A stretch of 64,000 nucleotides of DNA from an uncultured Actinomycetes bacterium (GTDB lineage Bacteria > Actinomycetota > UBA4738 > HRBIN12). The stretch is from assembly GCA_964640085.1 (NCBI GenBank), contig CAZXFA010000001.1, forward strand, positions 67,586 through 131,585, in the 5' to 3' direction. The translations under genes and the position numbers were made by a program. The notes beneath the pieces are model-generated. The model saw nothing but the letters and a program-made list of their open reading frames with translations, ran no database searches and was not told the DNA's origin. Of this stretch, positions 52,281 to 59,325 are shown piece by piece; position 1 is the stretch's first letter, and each line of letters starts with the position of its first letter.

Positions 52281-53378
52281 ATGGAACGAGGGAGGGCTCG
52301 TGATCTCGGGGTGGCGATCGGGACGTACCCCATCGGTCCCCGGAACGCGATCACGGACGTCGCGGGCGTCCGGGTGGGTCACGCCACGGTGGTCCGCGAT
52401 CCGTCGCCGGACGGGCGGGGCGCCGTCCGCACCGGCGTGACCGCGGTGTTCCCACACGACGGTCTCCCGTGGCTCGAACGCGTGTACGCCGGGACCCACG
52501 TGCTGAACGGCTACGGCGAGCTGATCGGGATCAACCAGATCCGGGAGTGGGGGCTCCTGCACTCGCCGGTCGTGATGACCAGCTCGCTCGCGATCGGCAA
52601 GGCCTACGACGCGACCGTCCGTTGGCGAACCGAGCGGCACGCGACGACCTCGCACGGTGGCGGCGACATGCCCGTGGTCACCGAGTGCGACGACTCGTTC
52701 CTGAACGACGTCACGACGTTCCCCCTGTCGGACGCCGACGTGTACGAGGCGCTGGATGCAGCGCGCGGCGGCGACGTGGCCGAGGGGTGCGTCGGCGCCG
52801 GTACCGGCATGCAGTGCATGGACTTCAAGGGTGGGATCGGCACCGCGTCTCGGATCGTGCCGGGCGGGTTCACGCTGGGCGCGCTGGTGCTGACGAACTT
52901 CGGCGAGCGGCGCGACCTGCGCATCGACGGCGTCCCGATCGGGCGGGAGATCGACGACCTGATGCCGGGCTCCCGCTCCGACGGCTCGTGCGTGGTGCTG
53001 GTGGCGACCGACGCGCCGCTGCTGCCCCACCATGCTCGCCGCCTCGCGGTGCGCGCGGGGCTCGGCCTGGCCCGAACGGGCTCCACGGCGCACGACGGCT
53101 CCGGCGAGCTCATGATCGCGTTCTCGACGGCCAACCGGATCCCGGTCGGGACCGAGGACGGCATCATCGACGTCCGCGCGATCCTCGACGGTTCCGCCGG
53201 GGAGCCGGAGCTGTTCGACCCCCTGTTCGCGGCGACCGTGGAGGCGGTCGAGGAGGCCGTGGTGAACGCCCTGTTCATCGCCGTCACGACGGTCGGCCGC
53301 GACGGGAACGTGCTCCACGCCCTCCCCCTCGACCGGACGCTCGAGCTCCTCGAGCGGCACGGTCGCCTCCCCCGCTAG
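52281..53378 (+). CDS. DmpA/OAT-like P1 (S58) family peptidase (L-aminopeptidase/D-esterase-like)
   Basis: ...MQCMDFKGGIGTASR... (the self-processing Gly-Ser nucleophile region of DmpA-family Ntn hydrolases). 365 aa. Confidence 0.8.
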   Translation: MERGRARDLGVAIGTYPIGPRNAITDVAGVRVGHATVVRDPSPDGRGAVRTGVTAVFPHDGLPWLERVYAGTHVLNGYGELIGINQIREWGLLHSPVVMTSSLAIGKAYDATVRWRTERHATTSHGGGDMPVVTECDDSFLNDVTTFPLSDADVYEALDAARGGDVAEGCVGAGTGMQCMDFKGGIGTASRIVPGGFTLGALVLTNFGERRDLRIDGVPIGREIDDLMPGSRSDGSCVVLVATDAPLLPHHARRLAVRAGLGLARTGSTAHDGSGELMIAFSTANRIPVGTEDGIIDVRAILDGSAGEPELFDPLFAATVEAVEEAVVNALFIAVTTVGRDGNVLHALPLDRTLELLERHGRLPR

Positions 53379-54010: not shown

Positions 54011-54053
54011 GGCCGGTTGGGCCGGCCGACGGGCGTTCCGTAGAATCGGCCAC

Positions 54054-54143
54054 GGAGACGTGGCTGAGTGGCCGAAAGCAGCCGCCTGCTAAGCGGTTAG
54101 GGGGTGTTGAGCTCCCTCGCGCGTTCGAATCGCGCCGTCTCCG
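54054..54143 (+). tRNA. tRNA-Ser (anticodon GCT), class II
   Basis: Acceptor GGAGACG/CGTCTCC (perfect), anticodon stem GCCGC/GCGGT with loop CTGCTAA, long variable arm, T-arm GCGCG-TTCGAAT-CGCGC, discriminator G; CCA not encoded. Confidence 0.85.
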
Positions 54144-54221
54144 CTGGTAGAGCGTAGTTTCCACCGTCAGCGAGAGAGCCGCGTTTCTTGTCACTCTCGG
54201 CCCGGCGCAGTGTCCGGGCGT

Positions 54222-54917
54222 CTATCGGCAGGCACCCGTCGGCCTCGGAGCCGGATTCCGCTCGATCGCCACGTCCGGGTACAGGGTGCCCTGCCGGTCG
54301 GACGAGAAGATCGCCAGGTAGCCCGCACACCCCTCCGCCTGGTGGAAGACGCCGTCGCTGACTTCGGTTCGATCCTTCCAGGTGACCGCGCGCCAGCTGC
54401 AGAGGCCGGTCTTCCAGCAGACGTAGTCGTCGGTGCTCATGATGCGGACCGTCACGGGCACCGTGGCCCGGAACTTCAGGTGGTACGTGAACGTATCCGG
54501 CACCCCGCCCACGTACTCCCTGCCCGGAGTCAGCGGGCAGCCCTGTTCGGGCCCAGCGCCGCAGGAGTTCCAAAGCGGGAATCGCGGGTTGTCCAGACTC
54601 CCGACGGTCTCCTCGATCTGGTCCTGGAGCCGCTGGATCGAGTTCCGCAACGCGCGCCACCGACCAGCGAATCGCGCCGCCTCCTCGCTCTGATCCGCCA
54701 GCTCGCTCTTGAGGCGCTCGACCTCCATGACCGCCCTCTCGTGGAGCGGTTCCCACCGGCTCCGTTCGTCGCGGGCTCCGAGCCACATGCCGATGCTGAC
54801 GCCGCCGAGAAGCATCGCGATGGCGATGGCGCCGAAGGCGACGGCTCGTCCACGTCGGACCGGTCTCCTGGCCGGCTTCGGGGGTTCAGGGAGACGCGCT
54901 CCGAGCTGTTCTCCCAC
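54222..54917 (-). CDS. hypothetical single-pass membrane protein: short basic cytoplasmic N-terminus, TM, coiled coil, Cys-rich extracytoplasmic domain (231 aa)
   Basis: Product MGEQLGARLPEPPKPARRPVRRGR-AVAFGAIAIAMLLGGVSIGMWLG-...ERLKSELADQSEEAARFAGRWRALRNSIQRLQDQIEE...NSCGAGPEQGCPL...YVCWKTGLCSW...EGCAGY...TGAC. Lies between tRNA-Ser(GCT) and a partial duplicate of its 3' end. Confidence 0.5.
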   Translation of the reverse strand: MGEQLGARLPEPPKPARRPVRRGRAVAFGAIAIAMLLGGVSIGMWLGARDERSRWEPLHERAVMEVERLKSELADQSEEAARFAGRWRALRNSIQRLQDQIEETVGSLDNPRFPLWNSCGAGPEQGCPLTPGREYVGGVPDTFTYHLKFRATVPVTVRIMSTDDYVCWKTGLCSWRAVTWKDRTEVSDGVFHQAEGCAGYLAIFSSDRQGTLYPDVAIERNPAPRPTGACR

Positions 54918-55104
54918 GGGTAGACGCTAGCCTGAGAGCCCGGAGCTGTGAAGGCCGTGGCGGCAGCACGGAGGCGTCACGTGACCCCGGCGCGACCGGT
55001 CGCAACATGACCTCTCTGGGATCGGTGGTGTTGCCCTGACCTGCGGCGATGTCCGAACTCGCAGGCGGACGGCGTGCCCTGCCGTGCCGAGCCCGCAGGG
55101 TGCC

Positions 55105-55150
55105 GAGCTCCCTCGCGCGTTGGGATCGCGCCGTCTCTGCTGGTCGGCGT
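55105..55150 (+). repeat. direct repeat of the 3' ~35 nt of tRNA-Ser(GCT) plus ~10 nt downstream (copy 2; copy 1 = 54109..54155)
   Basis: 54109 GAGCTCCCTCGCGCGTTCGAATCGCGCCGTCTCCGCTGGTAGAGCGT versus 55105 GAGCTCCCTCGCGCGTTGGGATCGCGCCGTCTCTGCTGGTCGGCGT: 17/17, 13/13 and 6/6 identical blocks separated by 3-, 1- and 2-3-nt differences (about 40 of 46 positions identical). Confidence 0.7.
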
Positions 55151-55228
55151 GGTGCCCGCAGTGGGTGTGCATCGGAGCGGTCGATGGGTAAGGTGGAGGG
55201 GACCGCGACCGCGGAAGGAGGGAGCATC

Positions 55229-55525
55229 ATGCTCCAGATCACCGACACGGCCGCGTCCGCGTTCCGGGACATCCTGTCGAACGAGGACGTCCCGGGATCC
55301 GCCATCCGGCTCGCGCCGGAGACGCAGGCAGACGGGCGAGCGAGCATCTCGCTCCAAGCGATCGACCAGCCCGCTCCGACCGACGCACCTGCCGAGGCAT
55401 CGGGCGTGCAGGTCGTCGTGGCGCCCGAGCTCGCGGCCTCGCTGGACGATGCGATCCTCGATGCCAGGCCGAGCCAGCAGGGGACGGAGTTCTTCATCCG
55501 CCCTCAGGAACCGCAGGCGTCCTGA
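55229..55525 (+). CDS. HesB/IscA-fold (Fe-S biogenesis-like) domain protein lacking the conserved Cys ligands (98 aa)
   Basis: GGAAGGAGGG lies 6 nt upstream of ATG 55229. MLQITDTAASAFRDIL...GSAIRLAPE...ISLQAIDQPAPTDAPAEASGVQVVVAPELAASLDDAILD follows the I.LT..A...I...G.GLRL....VD..S...L.G..ID pattern of the IscA/HesB fold, but has no Cys. Confidence 0.5.
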   Translation: MLQITDTAASAFRDILSNEDVPGSAIRLAPETQADGRASISLQAIDQPAPTDAPAEASGVQVVVAPELAASLDDAILDARPSQQGTEFFIRPQEPQAS

Positions 55526-55627
55526 ACCCCGCGGGTGGGGCGGTCTCCGGCGCGCCCCGCCCGACCGGGTCCTGGGGCTCGCCCAGCGGCAGGACGGCGT
55601 CCGCCCCGCGGTACGATGTGAGGCCGA

Positions 55628-55700
55628 GCGCCGGTAGCTCAATGGATAGAGCATCTGACTACGGATCAGAAGGTTGGGGGTTCGACTCCCTCCCGGCGCG
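55628..55700 (+). tRNA. tRNA-Arg (anticodon ACG)
   Basis: Acceptor GCGCCGG/CCGGCGC (perfect), D-arm AGCTCAATGGATAGAGC, anticodon stem TCTGA/TCAGA with loop CTACGGA, T-arm GGGGG-TTCGACT-CCCTC, discriminator G. Confidence 0.85.
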
Positions 55701-56240: not shown

Positions 56241-58283
56241 TCAGGAGAACCGGATCTTCGTCACGAAGGCGTCCCGGTCGCCCGCGTTCTCGTGGTCCTC
56301 GAACGCGCCATGTGTCTCGCCACCGATGTAGGCGGCCGAGGTCCCTACGGTGAGCGCGTTCCCGGCGTCGAAGTCGTCGGTGCCGAACTGGACGGTCCAC
56401 GATTGCACGCCCTTGGCGTCGTACTGCAGCAGGAAGGCGTCGGTCTCCCCGAGCAGGATGGCGTCCGGGAGGGCGCCGTTGGTCGCTCCGGCCACCAGCA
56501 CGCCGGTCGACGTGATCCCCACGCCGGCGACGCGGTCGTCCCCCGCCGAGCCGAACTGCCGGGTCCAGACCTCGACCCCCTTCGGATCCAGCCGGCGGAG
56601 GAAGCCGTCGAACCCCCCGTGCCCGGTCGTGTCGGGGAACACCCCCGAGGTGGTCCCTCCCACGAAGGCCTTCCTCGGGCGGACGACGAGGCCACCGACG
56701 TGGTCGTCGCCGGCCGTCCCGAACCGGGTGGTCCGGCGCACCCTGCCGCTGCGCGAGAGCGTGCCGACGAACCCGTCGATGCCTCCGATCCCAGGGCCCC
56801 CGAACCTTCCGTCGGTCGTGCCCGCGACCCAGACCCGGCGTCCCTGGACCTCGACCCCGGTGATGCGTTCCGCGCCCCGGGCGCCGATCTGGCGGGTCCA
56901 GACCTCGGTTCCCGAACGAGTGAGCTTCCTCACGAAGGCGTCGAGCCCTCGGCTGCGGCCCGCGAGCCGTCCCCCGGTGGAGCCCGCGACGTACACGCCG
57001 GTGGCGTCGAGAGCGATGGCGAGCGCTTCGTCGTCGGCCCGCGTCCCGAACTGCATGGTCCAGCGTTCGTTCCCCCTCAGGTCGTACGCGCGGACGAACG
57101 CGTCGACCCTGCCCGTGGAGCGCTCGCCCCTCAGCGTGCGGTCTGTGGTCCCTGCCACATAGACGCCCGTCCGGTCGACGGCCACCGCGAGTGCCCGATC
57201 GACCCCCGTGGTTCCGAACTGCCGCGTCCAAAGCTCCCGACCGCGGGGGTCGTGGACGCGGACGAACGCGTCGGCCAGGCGATGCCAGTCCTGACCCGGC
57301 AGCTCCATGTTCGTCTGGCCGACCGCGTACACGCCCCCGGGCCCCGTGTCGAGCCCGAGCGTGAGGTCGTACCGCTGGGTCCCGAACTGGCGGGTCCAGT
57401 CGGGTGTCGGGGTGGGCTGCACGGCCCGGCAGCGGATGTCCGCGTTCAGACATTCGGACACGAGCTGGTCCAGGCGCGGCTGCTGCCACGTGTTCCAGAA
57501 GTCCGAGTGCATCGTGAAGTACGGGCCGCTCGAGAGCAGGAGCGCCGGGCCACCCGCTGGGCCGAGCGGGCTCATCACGCCGAGATGGATCCGCTGGCTG
57601 AGCCTGGGAAGGTGGTGCGGGAACGCGGCTGGGCACGAGGTGCCGATCGGGTACGCCACGTCCGAAGGCTCCAGTCCCACGCCGTTCCAGCAGCTCGGCA
57701 TGTCCACGATGGCGACGATCCCGTCCACGAAGTCGTACCGCTCCGCCCACTGGGTGCAGTCGTAGGGGGCGTCTTCGCGCGGGGTCTTCACGTTCTTGGT
57801 CTCGCCGCAGAACCAGCGCACGTGCGGGTTCCCGGTGGCCGAGGTGGCCGACGGGTTCCCACCGATCATCTTCAGCCCCGGTGGGATCGTCTCCACGTCG
57901 CGGCCCTCGAGGCCGAGGTAGTAGATGCGCATCACCGGCGGGGTGATCTGGCGGCCGTTGAGCGAGAAGACCGGTGCCCAGTACCCGGCGGTATCGCTCG
58001 GGACCCGGCACGTCGTGGAGCCGGCCAGCATCGAGTCCACGGTCGAGTGGGCGTCCACGGTGCTGTTGCCGAAGAAGTCGTGAAGGTGGGACGCGCCCGG
58101 CACGCCGGGGTGGACGATCGGATCGTCGGGCAGCGTGTGCGAGTGGCGGCAGCGGATCACGAACTGCCCGGGGGAGCCATCCGCGGCCGAAGCGGGCACC
58201 GCACCCGCGAGGGAGGCCAACAGGGCGATCGCGACGAAGGCCGTGACCATCGGCCGGATGGGCTGCGGGGGTCGGGTCCCCAT
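56241..58283 (-). CDS. secreted DUF1996-domain protein with C-terminal beta-propeller (SBBP-type) repeats, ~680 aa
   Basis: Start at ATG 58283 (internal to track ORF 56241..58505). Signal peptide ...MVTAFVAIALLASLAGAVPASAADG. DUF1996-like region ...CRHSHTLPDDPIVHPGVPGASHLHDFFGN.... Then 7-8 repeats of the form G.(R/D)(V/L)DAFV(R/K).....G.E.WT.QFG...(D/A)D......(V/I)...G.(Y/L)V(A/G)G.T. Confidence 0.65.
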   Translation of the reverse strand: MGTRPPQPIRPMVTAFVAIALLASLAGAVPASAADGSPGQFVIRCRHSHTLPDDPIVHPGVPGASHLHDFFGNSTVDAHSTVDSMLAGSTTCRVPSDTAGYWAPVFSLNGRQITPPVMRIYYLGLEGRDVETIPPGLKMIGGNPSATSATGNPHVRWFCGETKNVKTPREDAPYDCTQWAERYDFVDGIVAIVDMPSCWNGVGLEPSDVAYPIGTSCPAAFPHHLPRLSQRIHLGVMSPLGPAGGPALLLSSGPYFTMHSDFWNTWQQPRLDQLVSECLNADIRCRAVQPTPTPDWTRQFGTQRYDLTLGLDTGPGGVYAVGQTNMELPGQDWHRLADAFVRVHDPRGRELWTRQFGTTGVDRALAVAVDRTGVYVAGTTDRTLRGERSTGRVDAFVRAYDLRGNERWTMQFGTRADDEALAIALDATGVYVAGSTGGRLAGRSRGLDAFVRKLTRSGTEVWTRQIGARGAERITGVEVQGRRVWVAGTTDGRFGGPGIGGIDGFVGTLSRSGRVRRTTRFGTAGDDHVGGLVVRPRKAFVGGTTSGVFPDTTGHGGFDGFLRRLDPKGVEVWTRQFGSAGDDRVAGVGITSTGVLVAGATNGALPDAILLGETDAFLLQYDAKGVQSWTVQFGTDDFDAGNALTVGTSAAYIGGETHGAFEDHENAGDRDAFVTKIRFS

Positions 58284-58353
58284 GAGACGTCCGACGCTAC
58301 CACGGGCGCCAACCGGGGCTAGGATGGCGTCCCGCCTCGCGAGAGGAGCCGTC

Positions 58354-59325
58354 ATGCGCCACGTGAACCTGGGGCGGCACGGTGTGAAGGTCAGCCGGTT
58401 GTGCCTGGGAACGATGAACTTCGGCCCGGAGACGAGCGAGGAGGACTCGTTCGCGATCATGGACCGGGCGCTGGATGAGGGCATCAACTTCTTCGACACC
58501 GCCAACGTCTACGGGCGCTGGAAGGGTGTCGGGGCCACCGAGACGATCCTCGGGCACTGGTTCGCGAAGAGCGGCGGTCGCCGGGAGAAGGTGGTCCTGG
58601 CCACGAAGGTCTACAACAAGATGGGGGATTGGCCGAACGAGTTCCGTCTATCCGCGTACCACATCCGGCGCGCGTGCGAGGACTCCCTACAGAGGCTCCG
58701 GACCGACCACATCGACCTCTACCAGATGCATCACATCGACCGCCATGCCCCGTGGGACGAGGTGTGGCAGGCATTCGACACGCTCGTGCAGCAGGGGAAG
58801 ATCAGCTACGTCGGCTCCTCGAACTTCGCGGGCTGGCACATCGCGCAGGCGAACGAGACCGCACGGGAGCGGCACCGGCTCGGACTCGCGTCCGAGCAGT
58901 GTGAGTACAGCCTCGCCCAACGGATGGGCGAGCTCGAGGTCCTGCCCGCCTGCGAGGGCTACGGCATGGGCGTGATCCCCTACAGCCCGCTCGCCGGCGG
59001 CCTGCTGGGCGGGATCCTCGGGAAGACCGGCGGGCGGAGCCAGAGCGACGAGTGGGTGCAAGGGGAGCTCGCCGAGCGTCGGGACCAGGTCGAGGCGTTC
59101 GAGGCGCTCTGCCGCGAGCTGGGCGAGGCCCCCGCCGTGGTGGCCCATGCGTGGCTCCTGGCGAACCCGGTGGTGACGGCCCCGATCATCGGGCCGCGGA
59201 CGATCGAGCAGCTCGATGCTCCGCTCCGTTCGCTCGAGGTGGAGCTGGGCGAGGACGCCATGCGGCGCCTGGACGAGATCTTCCCCGGGCCAGGCGGCCC
59301 CGCTCCCGAAGCCTACGCCTGGTAG
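58354..59325 (+). CDS. aldo/keto reductase family oxidoreductase
   Basis: GAGAGGAG lies 5 nt upstream of ATG 58354. ...LCLGTMNFG..., ...DTANVYG..., catalytic tetrad context (D, Y, K, H), ...ISYVGSSNF.... 323 aa. Confidence 0.9.
   Translation: MRHVNLGRHGVKVSRLCLGTMNFGPETSEEDSFAIMDRALDEGINFFDTANVYGRWKGVGATETILGHWFAKSGGRREKVVLATKVYNKMGDWPNEFRLSAYHIRRACEDSLQRLRTDHIDLYQMHHIDRHAPWDEVWQAFDTLVQQGKISYVGSSNFAGWHIAQANETARERHRLGLASEQCEYSLAQRMGELEVLPACEGYGMGVIPYSPLAGGLLGGILGKTGGRSQSDEWVQGELAERRDQVEAFEALCRELGEAPAVVAHAWLLANPVVTAPIIGPRTIEQLDAPLRSLEVELGEDAMRRLDEIFPGPGGPAPEAYAW

Follow-up and report, generated by a model that had tools for sequence, protein, structure and literature searches.

Actinomycete elements of the pSAM2/SLP1 type (AICEs) integrate at the 3' ends of tRNA genes. 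The mycobacteriophage Ms6 integrates at the T-loop of tRNA-Ala (PMC1762012). An intact tRNA gene together with a displaced 3' fragment is the signature used by Islander to map islands; the T-stem-region class of subsites accounts for 1836 of 3919 Islander islands, about half (PMC4383910). Furthermore, cis-mobilizable elements (CIMEs) were described as decayed ICEs or IMEs which lost their integration and transfer genes and kept attL and attR (PMC5704250).

We analyzed a stretch of 64,000 nucleotides (the window) from an uncultured Actinomycetes bacterium, in which a tRNA-Ser(GCT) gene is followed about 1 kb downstream by a repeat of its own 3' end. The original prediction took this arrangement for the attL/attR-like trace of DNA that was inserted at the 3' end of tRNA-Ser(GCT) and lacks an integrase, and the results described below support this reading. 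We consider it probable (roughly 0.75) that the bracketed segment is all that decay has left of an integrative element which entered by Campbell-type recombination within the tRNA-Ser(GCT) 3' end; the remnant is probably CIME-like and immobile. The features of the locus are compiled in Table 1.

Table 1. Features of the locus (positions in the window) and of the interval between tRNA-Ser(GCT) and tRNA-Arg(ACG) in the window and its relatives.
Feature or locus	Position	Strand	Remarks
tRNA-Ser(GCT)	54054-54143 (end 54143/4 by caller)	+	ARAGORN; Rfam tRNA model, 56.3 bits
Repeat copy 1, attL-like	54102..54158	+	Part of variable arm, T arm, acceptor 3' strand, ~15 nt trailer
Lineage-specific segment, ~1.03 kb	54148..55180		Absent from L032 and all other relatives, present in L057
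X231, cargo gene, 231 aa	54222-54917	-	Bitopic membrane protein, basic N-terminus
X231 upstream (promoter) region	54918..55097		11/180 differences to L057; diverges fastest within the locus
Repeat copy 2, attR-like displaced tRNA-Ser 3' fragment	55098..55153	+	Degenerate in T-loop and acceptor
H98, 98-aa ORF	55230..55525	+	Outside the repeat-bounded segment, inside the tRNA-Ser/tRNA-Arg interval; GC3 0.72
tRNA-Arg(ACG)	55628..55700	+	Conserved right-hand hotspot border; ARAGORN, Rfam
L045			Gap 1 nt; empty site
L041			Gap roughly 5-10 nt; empty site
L034			Gap 18 nt; empty site
L036, L037, L040, L046			Gap 42-43 nt; empty sites
L023			Gap 516 nt; DUF6855
L022			Gap 1.25 kb
Window and L057			Gap 1.48 kb
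L031, L039, L042			Gap 1.64 kb; in L031 candidate ArsR-type regulator (by eye)
L047			Gap 1.76 kb; candidate HAD-type hydrolase (by eye)
L032			Gap 2.5 kb
L009			Gap 2.7 kb
L012			Gap 3.3 kb; ANTAR regulator and desaturase
L007, L024			Gap 4.7-4.8 kb; in L007 luciferase-like monooxygenase and molybdopterin oxidoreductase, in L024 DUF6855
L010, L013, L019, L020, L021			Gap >8 kb; in L019 RTX-repeat protein, in L020 IS481-type rve transposase
L035			Secreted repeat proteins

A repeat search revealed that positions 54102-54148 and 55098-55144 form a direct repeat with 42 of 47 identical nucleotides (89%), ungapped and with a spacing of 996 nt. Gapped local alignment extended the repeat to 54102-54158 versus 55098-55153, where 49 of 57 positions are identical with one gap. 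The repeat announced by the original prediction is thus real, and the duplicated part consists of the last 42 nt of tRNA-Ser(GCT) and about 15 nt of trailer, the tRNA portion comprising the complete T arm, the 3' strand of the acceptor, and some of the variable arm. A 17-nt partial match (repeat family D2) was also seen inside X231; short GC-rich repeats of this kind are common in a genome of 71.6% G+C, and a chance match or a generic tRNA-like or GC-rich sequence was considered for the long repeat as well. However, the 40-nt core of the repeat, searched with ≤3 mismatches, had just two occurrences in the 64-kb window and none in 100 dinucleotide-preserving shuffles, in line with the prediction that chance would be an unlikely source. 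Upon local alignment with the tRNAs of the window, copy 2 scored 37 against tRNA-Ser(GCT) and ≤11 against tRNA-Ser(TGA), tRNA-Leu, and tRNA-Arg; furthermore, the repeat is conserved in the related contig L057. The probability of mere coincidence is therefore negligible.

The mismatches between both copies had been described as clustered in the T-loop. This holds for two of the five ungapped mismatches, which change TTCGAAT in copy 1 to TTGGGAT in copy 2, but two others are located in the variable-arm loop and one in the acceptor 3' strand; the longest perfect block between the copies is 17 nt. The sequence of the copy-2 type is GGGTGCCGAGCTCCCTCGCGCGTTGGGATCGCGCC, and copy 2 was not called as a tRNA by either ARAGORN or Rfam. 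Judged by its sequence, tRNA-Ser(GCT) itself appears intact and functional-looking and would represent the regenerated target gene. A metagenome scan with a 35-nt att pattern yielded 20 contigs, all of them with a full tRNA-Ser(GCT). The identical 90-nt allele was present in most of these contigs, and a few differed by 1-2 nt in the variable loop. Hence, the unusual GCGCG T stem is the normal host allele and was not brought by an element. The trailers were compared to find out which copy carries the original host flank, a comparison which covers just 5-8 nt and is uninformative.

The borders of the inserted DNA were determined by comparison with L032, the closest distinct relative. L032 shares with the window CBS (74% at the amino acid level), tRNA-Ser, H98 (68%), and tRNA-Arg, and also the 152-aa lipoprotein Lipo152 (82%) and the large downstream protein Big754 (67%). 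DNA homology between L032 and the window stops at 54147, 4 nt past tRNA-Ser, and restarts at about 55180-55186, roughly 30 nt beyond copy 2; this break brackets exactly X231 and copy 2. At the same place L032 carries an unrelated insert of 2.1 kb without a tRNA fragment, for which inspection of the translations suggested a small secreted protein, a hexapeptide-repeat acyltransferase, and a family-2 glycosyltransferase. Both repeat copies are therefore located at the borders of window-specific DNA, as an attL/attR pair should be.

A second contig, L057 (1644 nt, SRR24270832), is 97.7% identical to window positions 54030-55672 and shows the same layout. Copy 1 is identical in L057, and copy 2 has the same T-loop and acceptor changes and one further substitution. 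These changes are common to both strains and hence predate their split. Between the window and L057, X231 shows 18 differences, 8 of them nonsynonymous and 10 synonymous; this rough site count indicates that X231 is a functional gene retained under purifying selection. Conservation of the segment with both copies in distant relatives had been named beforehand as the mark of an ancient local duplication; the segment is absent from L032 and beyond and was found only in L057.

The segment between the copies (54148-55097) contains one credible gene, X231, which is the sole ORF with the coding signature of a 71.6% G+C genome. The expectation of a single gene and no integrase was thus borne out: no recombinase gene is present in the segment, and there is no room for one beside X231. 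G+C content is 0.687 for the segment as compared to 0.716 for the window, and GC3 of X231 is 0.85 as compared to a window mean of 0.915 ± 0.028 (z = -2.3), a modest deviation. The region upstream of X231 gave no match to the sigma-70 consensus, and a scan of the locus for promoter and terminator consensus sequences detected nothing.

Additionally, the interval between tRNA-Ser(GCT) and tRNA-Arg(ACG) was compared among related genomes. By means of the upstream peptidase S58 gene (52281-53378, identified by Pfam), 22 loci of GTDB species representatives were fetched. These genomes are without exception uncultured Actinomycetota MAGs, with an S58 identity of 76-83% in most cases. The gap lengths and gap contents are given in Table 1. 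Seven related contigs contain empty sites, and three of these (L036, L040, L046) share the S58-CBS-tRNA-Ser left flank of the window and are thus orthologous empty sites. The gap lengths across the loci lead to the conclusion that a tight tRNA-Ser/tRNA-Arg tandem, separated by 1-43 nt, is the ancestral state. The empty sites had been predicted with tRNA-Ser next to either tRNA-Arg or a 'HesB-like' gene; the former arrangement was found in the seven contigs, but the latter in none. In occupied gaps the cargo is unrelated between loci and ranges from 0.5 to >8 kb. The tRNA-Ser/tRNA-Arg gap is a hypervariable hotspot which has been filled repeatedly with different accessory DNA in this lineage.

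Fragments of tRNA-Ser were searched for in the occupied gaps of L032, L031, L047, L029, L035, L043, and L033, and none was found. Since most occupied gaps lack such a fragment, a large part of the exchange at this hotspot may follow another route, e.g., homologous recombination in the flanking tRNAs. Non-site-specific routes thus clearly operate here, and this counts against integration in the window, as does the failure to find an integrase or attP source anywhere searched; the modest compositional deviation points in the same direction, and so do the roughly 30 nt between copy 2 and the restart of L032 homology, which are no more than a candidate for the original tRNA trailer. The first two of these observations would suit a local rearrangement, in which the 3' part of tRNA-Ser was duplicated, or a second tRNA-Ser lost its 5' half, and X231 arrived separately between the copies. 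However, tandem full-length tRNA-Ser(GCT) genes were absent from all of about 35 related loci, and a 3' piece lying in direct orientation at the far border of lineage-specific DNA is what integration predicts. Moreover, a rearrangement needs two independent events, namely duplication and a precise insertion or deletion, whereas integration needs one. We therefore regard a local rearrangement as unlikely and integration into tRNA-Ser(GCT) as the preferred explanation.

The layout predicted for the X231 protein, a basic N-terminus followed by a TM helix, a coiled coil, and a Cys-rich domain, agrees with its AlphaFold model. This model (mean pLDDT 78.7, mostly 86-97 for residues about 130-220) comprises a TM helix (25-39), a single long coiled-coil-like helix (48-105), and a Cys-containing beta-sandwich (127-220). 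X231 contains six Cys residues. It may be exposed outside the cell membrane, with a role as a binding module. The public gene call is 197 aa long (P0001). It lacks 34 residues, which would place its start at M35 within the predicted TM helix, and it thereby appears to lose this helix; the alignment favours the GTG start giving 231 aa. GOLD-domain and CBM-like beta-sandwiches are structural neighbours of the C-terminal domain with a sequence identity of 9-16%. In contrast to these neighbours, X231 is bacterial and has no sequence-family match, and its topology is reversed as compared to p24 proteins, which are anchored C-terminally and not N-terminally.

The description of X231 as an orphan proved wrong: 108 homologues exist in a protein set clustered at 90%, and a profile search returned 234 clusters at 50% identity, 171 of them with E ≤ 1e-10. 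The few homologues with a named organism belong to Actinomycetota, with one additional Dormibacteraceae member. P111, W116, P140-D-T-F143, C167, G196-C197, Y200, P214, T227-G228, and C230 are invariant in the alignment. The proposed search of X231 against Pfam and phage cargo returned nothing at or above the Pfam threshold, and NCBIfam, PHROGs, PADLOC, and PDB sequences gave no real match; a recombinase domain was not detected with Pfam, NCBIfam, PHROGs, or PADLOC. Assignment to DUF7032 (PF23005) was rejected at 17 bits versus a cut-off of 27, with a match limited to coiled-coil residues 67-104, and PADLOC matches to Cas12 were spurious and due to the coiled coil. X231 was also rejected as phage, plasmid, or defence cargo, with no relative in viral contigs, PHROGs, PADLOC, or plasmid or phage records.

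The homologues of X231 that were examined reside in unrelated neighbourhoods, some of which look mobile (DDE transposases with an amidase; AAA_25 with Fic; runs of tiny ORFs). No tRNAs, tRNA fragments, or flanking repeats were found around them; hence, X231 does not travel as a repeat-bounded cassette. At the tRNA-Ser loci of the relatives X231 was absent from every one, as determined by tblastn.

The original prediction had left the choice between the eroded remnant of a larger element and a small mobilizable cassette; the remnant is favoured, and the cassette fares less well. Such a cassette would be an active, CIME-like unit of a single gene without integrase, whose tRNA-derived ends are recombined by an integrase encoded elsewhere, so that it is mobilised in trans or in cis. 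The unit in the window is indeed highly compact, as it consists of a single intact gene plus short spacers, and CIMEs with both att sites preserved have been described (PMC5704250). An independent second case of one bracketed gene was seen in L019, where tRNA-Ser is followed by a single RTX-repeat gene and then by a tRNA-Ser fragment of 65 nt that belongs to another allele, over ~1.3 kb and without an integrase. Furthermore, copy 2 and the following spacer differ from L057 at 2 of 132 positions as compared to 11 of 180 in the adjacent intergenic region upstream of X231 (Fisher p = 0.049), a value too weak on such small counts to claim constraint on copy 2. Two cases, the window and L019, are too few for a pattern, and the homologues of X231 lack repeats or tRNA fragments at their flanks. 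In addition, the copies differ at 5 of 47 positions, two of them in the T-loop, with no perfect block beyond 17 nt; the changes of copy 2 were fixed early, with the same sequence state in two samples, and no recombinase was found among ten window ORFs scanned. An active cassette is thus distinctly improbable. Still broader is the idea that tRNA-Ser(GCT) of this actinobacterial lineage hosts recurrent single-gene cassettes without integrase, each delimited by the tRNA and a 3' tRNA fragment and inserted and exchanged in trans by a chromosomal recombinase, and we give it very little credence; if true, this class would be an integron-like system anchored on a tRNA gene, with each cassette encoding a secreted or surface protein (X231; the RTX-repeat protein of L019).

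The gene following copy 2 had been called HesB-like. This 98-aa ORF, H98, has no HesB match and none in Pfam, NCBIfam, PHROGs, or PDB, and no homologue was found in a set of 5.8 billion proteins. It is common only to L032 (identity given above) and L057 and absent from other relatives. As tRNA-Ser lies directly beside tRNA-Arg in the ancestral state, H98 is part of the variable interval, and it probably arrived in the tRNA-Ser/tRNA-Arg gap earlier than the X231 segment. Tandem accretion would fit H98, though no second tRNA fragment marks it.

Mobility genes and a parent element were sought within and beyond the window. Ten other window ORFs (305-606 aa) contain no recombinase; all match non-recombinase families, among them metabolic enzymes, transporters, and a Tad pilus protein. 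The rest of the window looks like core chromosome: ORF translations, together with a small number of Pfam matches, point to a his operon, a pknB/pbpA/rodA-type cluster, and genes of heme biosynthesis. Among ten ORFs from the gaps of relatives no tyrosine recombinase was found, the one transposase being that of the IS481 type in L020, and no integrase was located beside any copy of this tRNA-Ser(GCT) allele. An 85-aa ORF beside the L029 tRNA resembled an integrase C-terminus by eye and was discarded, as it had no Pfam or PDB support. Viral contigs were searched for attP-bearing elements with 35-nt and 26-nt att patterns and gave 0 matches; the att allele of the relatives matched only a jumbo-phage tRNA array in these contigs, which is irrelevant. 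A parent ICE or IME was found neither in viral contigs nor in phage or plasmid records.

Insertion is concluded from the empty sites in relatives, the breaks of L032 homology at both copies, and the occurrence of X231 elsewhere in unrelated contexts only; decay is concluded from the missing integrase, the size of 1 kb, and the degenerate attR-like copy. Recombination was most likely mediated by a tyrosine integrase, which would once have been accompanied by further mobility genes. The incoming DNA would have brought its own tRNA 3' end; this end is now part of the functional tRNA on the attL side (copy 1), and the chromosomal 3' fragment would have been displaced about 1 kb downstream to the attR side (copy 2). 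Later, the integrase and any transfer genes may have been deleted, so that X231 and the region upstream of it remained. Released from tRNA selection, copy 2 would then have gathered its changes in the T-loop and acceptor, and these have probably immobilised the element.

In an uncultured Actinomycetota lineage, the locus identifies tRNA-Ser(GCT)/tRNA-Arg(ACG) as a well-defined accessory-DNA hotspot, which is of value mainly for annotation, and it shows how small a tRNA-island remnant can get without losing a cargo gene under selection. Two by-products are of most use, namely the definition of this hotspot and the unnamed X231 family of uncharacterised membrane-anchored proteins. This family has a GOLD-like beta-sandwich and invariant motifs (Cys, Trp, PDTF) and could deserve a DUF entry.

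With Ms6 and the pSAM2/SLP1-type AICEs the locus shares the host phylum, the tRNA 3' end as target, and a block of identity from the T arm to the 3' end; unlike these, the segment contains no int, xis, rep, or tra, and no sequence link to these elements was found. An Islander island has a tyrosine integrase gene, whereas here ~1 kb with one gene and a degenerate fragment would be rejected by the Islander filters. Nevertheless, the intact tRNA, the 3' fragment in the same orientation downstream, the lineage-specific DNA between them, and the empty sites in relatives are those of Islander islands; copy 2, which begins immediately 5' of the T stem and extends beyond the tRNA 3' end, agrees with the T-stem-region class. 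The definition of CIMEs comes from Firmicutes, with an identifiable ICE parent and usable att sites, whereas no parent element is known here and the changes in the attR-like copy 2 would probably block recombination. The locus is like CIMEs in that integrase and transfer genes are absent, att-like repeats are present at a tRNA 3' end, and other acquired DNA (H98) lies in tandem. It is another example of a well-known type of feature and leaves the understanding of tRNA-targeted integration unchallenged.

A second integrase-less bracket, in which a tRNA-Ser(GCT) gene and a downstream tRNA fragment enclose a single gene, was found in L019, a locus fetched from a relative. Its only gene encodes an RTX-repeat protein. 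The tRNA-Ser fragment at the far end was called as a tRNA by ARAGORN and not by Rfam; its variable arm and T stem correspond to the allele of the more distant relative L022 and not to that of the resident tRNA. The metagenome-assembled genome MFD10007.bin.2.82 carries two different loci with the peptidase S58 gene and tRNA-Ser(GCT), L010 and L019, on separate contigs, which could reflect either a binned mixture of strains or a true duplication of the locus.

The tRNA-Ser(GCT) gene of the window (54054-54143) was compared with those of loci L007-L024. Among these relatives, the 5' half, which reaches as far as the variable arm, was near-invariant, L021 and L022, with 2-3 different positions, being the sole exceptions. 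At least six allelic versions of the variable arm and T stem occurred, and changes in the stems were compensated. A near-invariant 5' half together with variable 3' alleles would be expected if repeated integrations had exchanged the 3' portion of the gene; alternatively, the pattern could result from ordinary compensatory evolution.

Features of the tRNA-Ser(GCT) locus in the window and in relatives
Feature	Location	Strand	Remark
5' end of the X231 gene	window 54815-54917
98-aa ORF	window 55230-55525	+	between repeat copy 2 and tRNA-Arg
Large secreted protein, 754-aa ORF	window 56241-58505	-	downstream of tRNA-Arg
Second single-gene bracket	L019 12747-14153		tRNA-Ser(GCT), RTX-repeat gene, tRNA-Ser fragment
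RTX-repeat protein gene	L019 12881-14035
tRNA-Ser fragment	L019 14090-14153		65 nt
HicA/HicB-like pair	L029 14230-14809		identical tRNA-Ser(GCT) allele lies about 1 kb upstream

Additionally, L029 contains a weak HicA/HicB-like toxin-antitoxin pair (HicA at 21.6 bits, below the Pfam cut-off), suggesting that a further lineage also has accessory DNA at this site. The viral contig L056 (IMG/VR UViG_3300035660_000001, 160 kb), with 33 tRNA genes within 5.5 kb (L056 6174-11679), is unrelated to the tRNA-Ser insertion; it was matched solely because the T arm of one of its tRNA-Ser genes also occurs in the relatives' allele.

The 98-aa ORF had been described as HesB-like in the original prediction. 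This label was not borne out by Pfam, NCBIfam, PHROG or PDB, none of which gave a match, and a search of 5.8 billion proteins returned no homologue. Its GC3 is 0.72 as compared to a window mean of 0.91. The closest distinct relative (L032) has an ORF of equal length with 68% identity, and only two residues differ between the window and the 97.7%-identical strain L057. The locus has its true orphan in this 98-aa ORF, which belongs to the variable interval between tRNA-Ser(GCT) and tRNA-Arg.

For X231, the bracketed membrane protein of the window, the public gene call (P0001) comprises 197 aa and lacks 34 N-terminal residues; translation would then start at M35, within the predicted TM helix. 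Alignment of 46 homologues supports the GTG start of a 231-aa protein.

Furthermore, the gene of the large secreted protein is inverted in L023 and L024 relative to a 152-aa lipoprotein gene, as compared to the window. The first ~80 residues of the window's 754-aa ORF match a separate place in the relatives, past the lipoprotein gene and on the - strand; judged by this match, the ORF is probably over-extended. The stretch that follows tRNA-Arg is rearranged as well.
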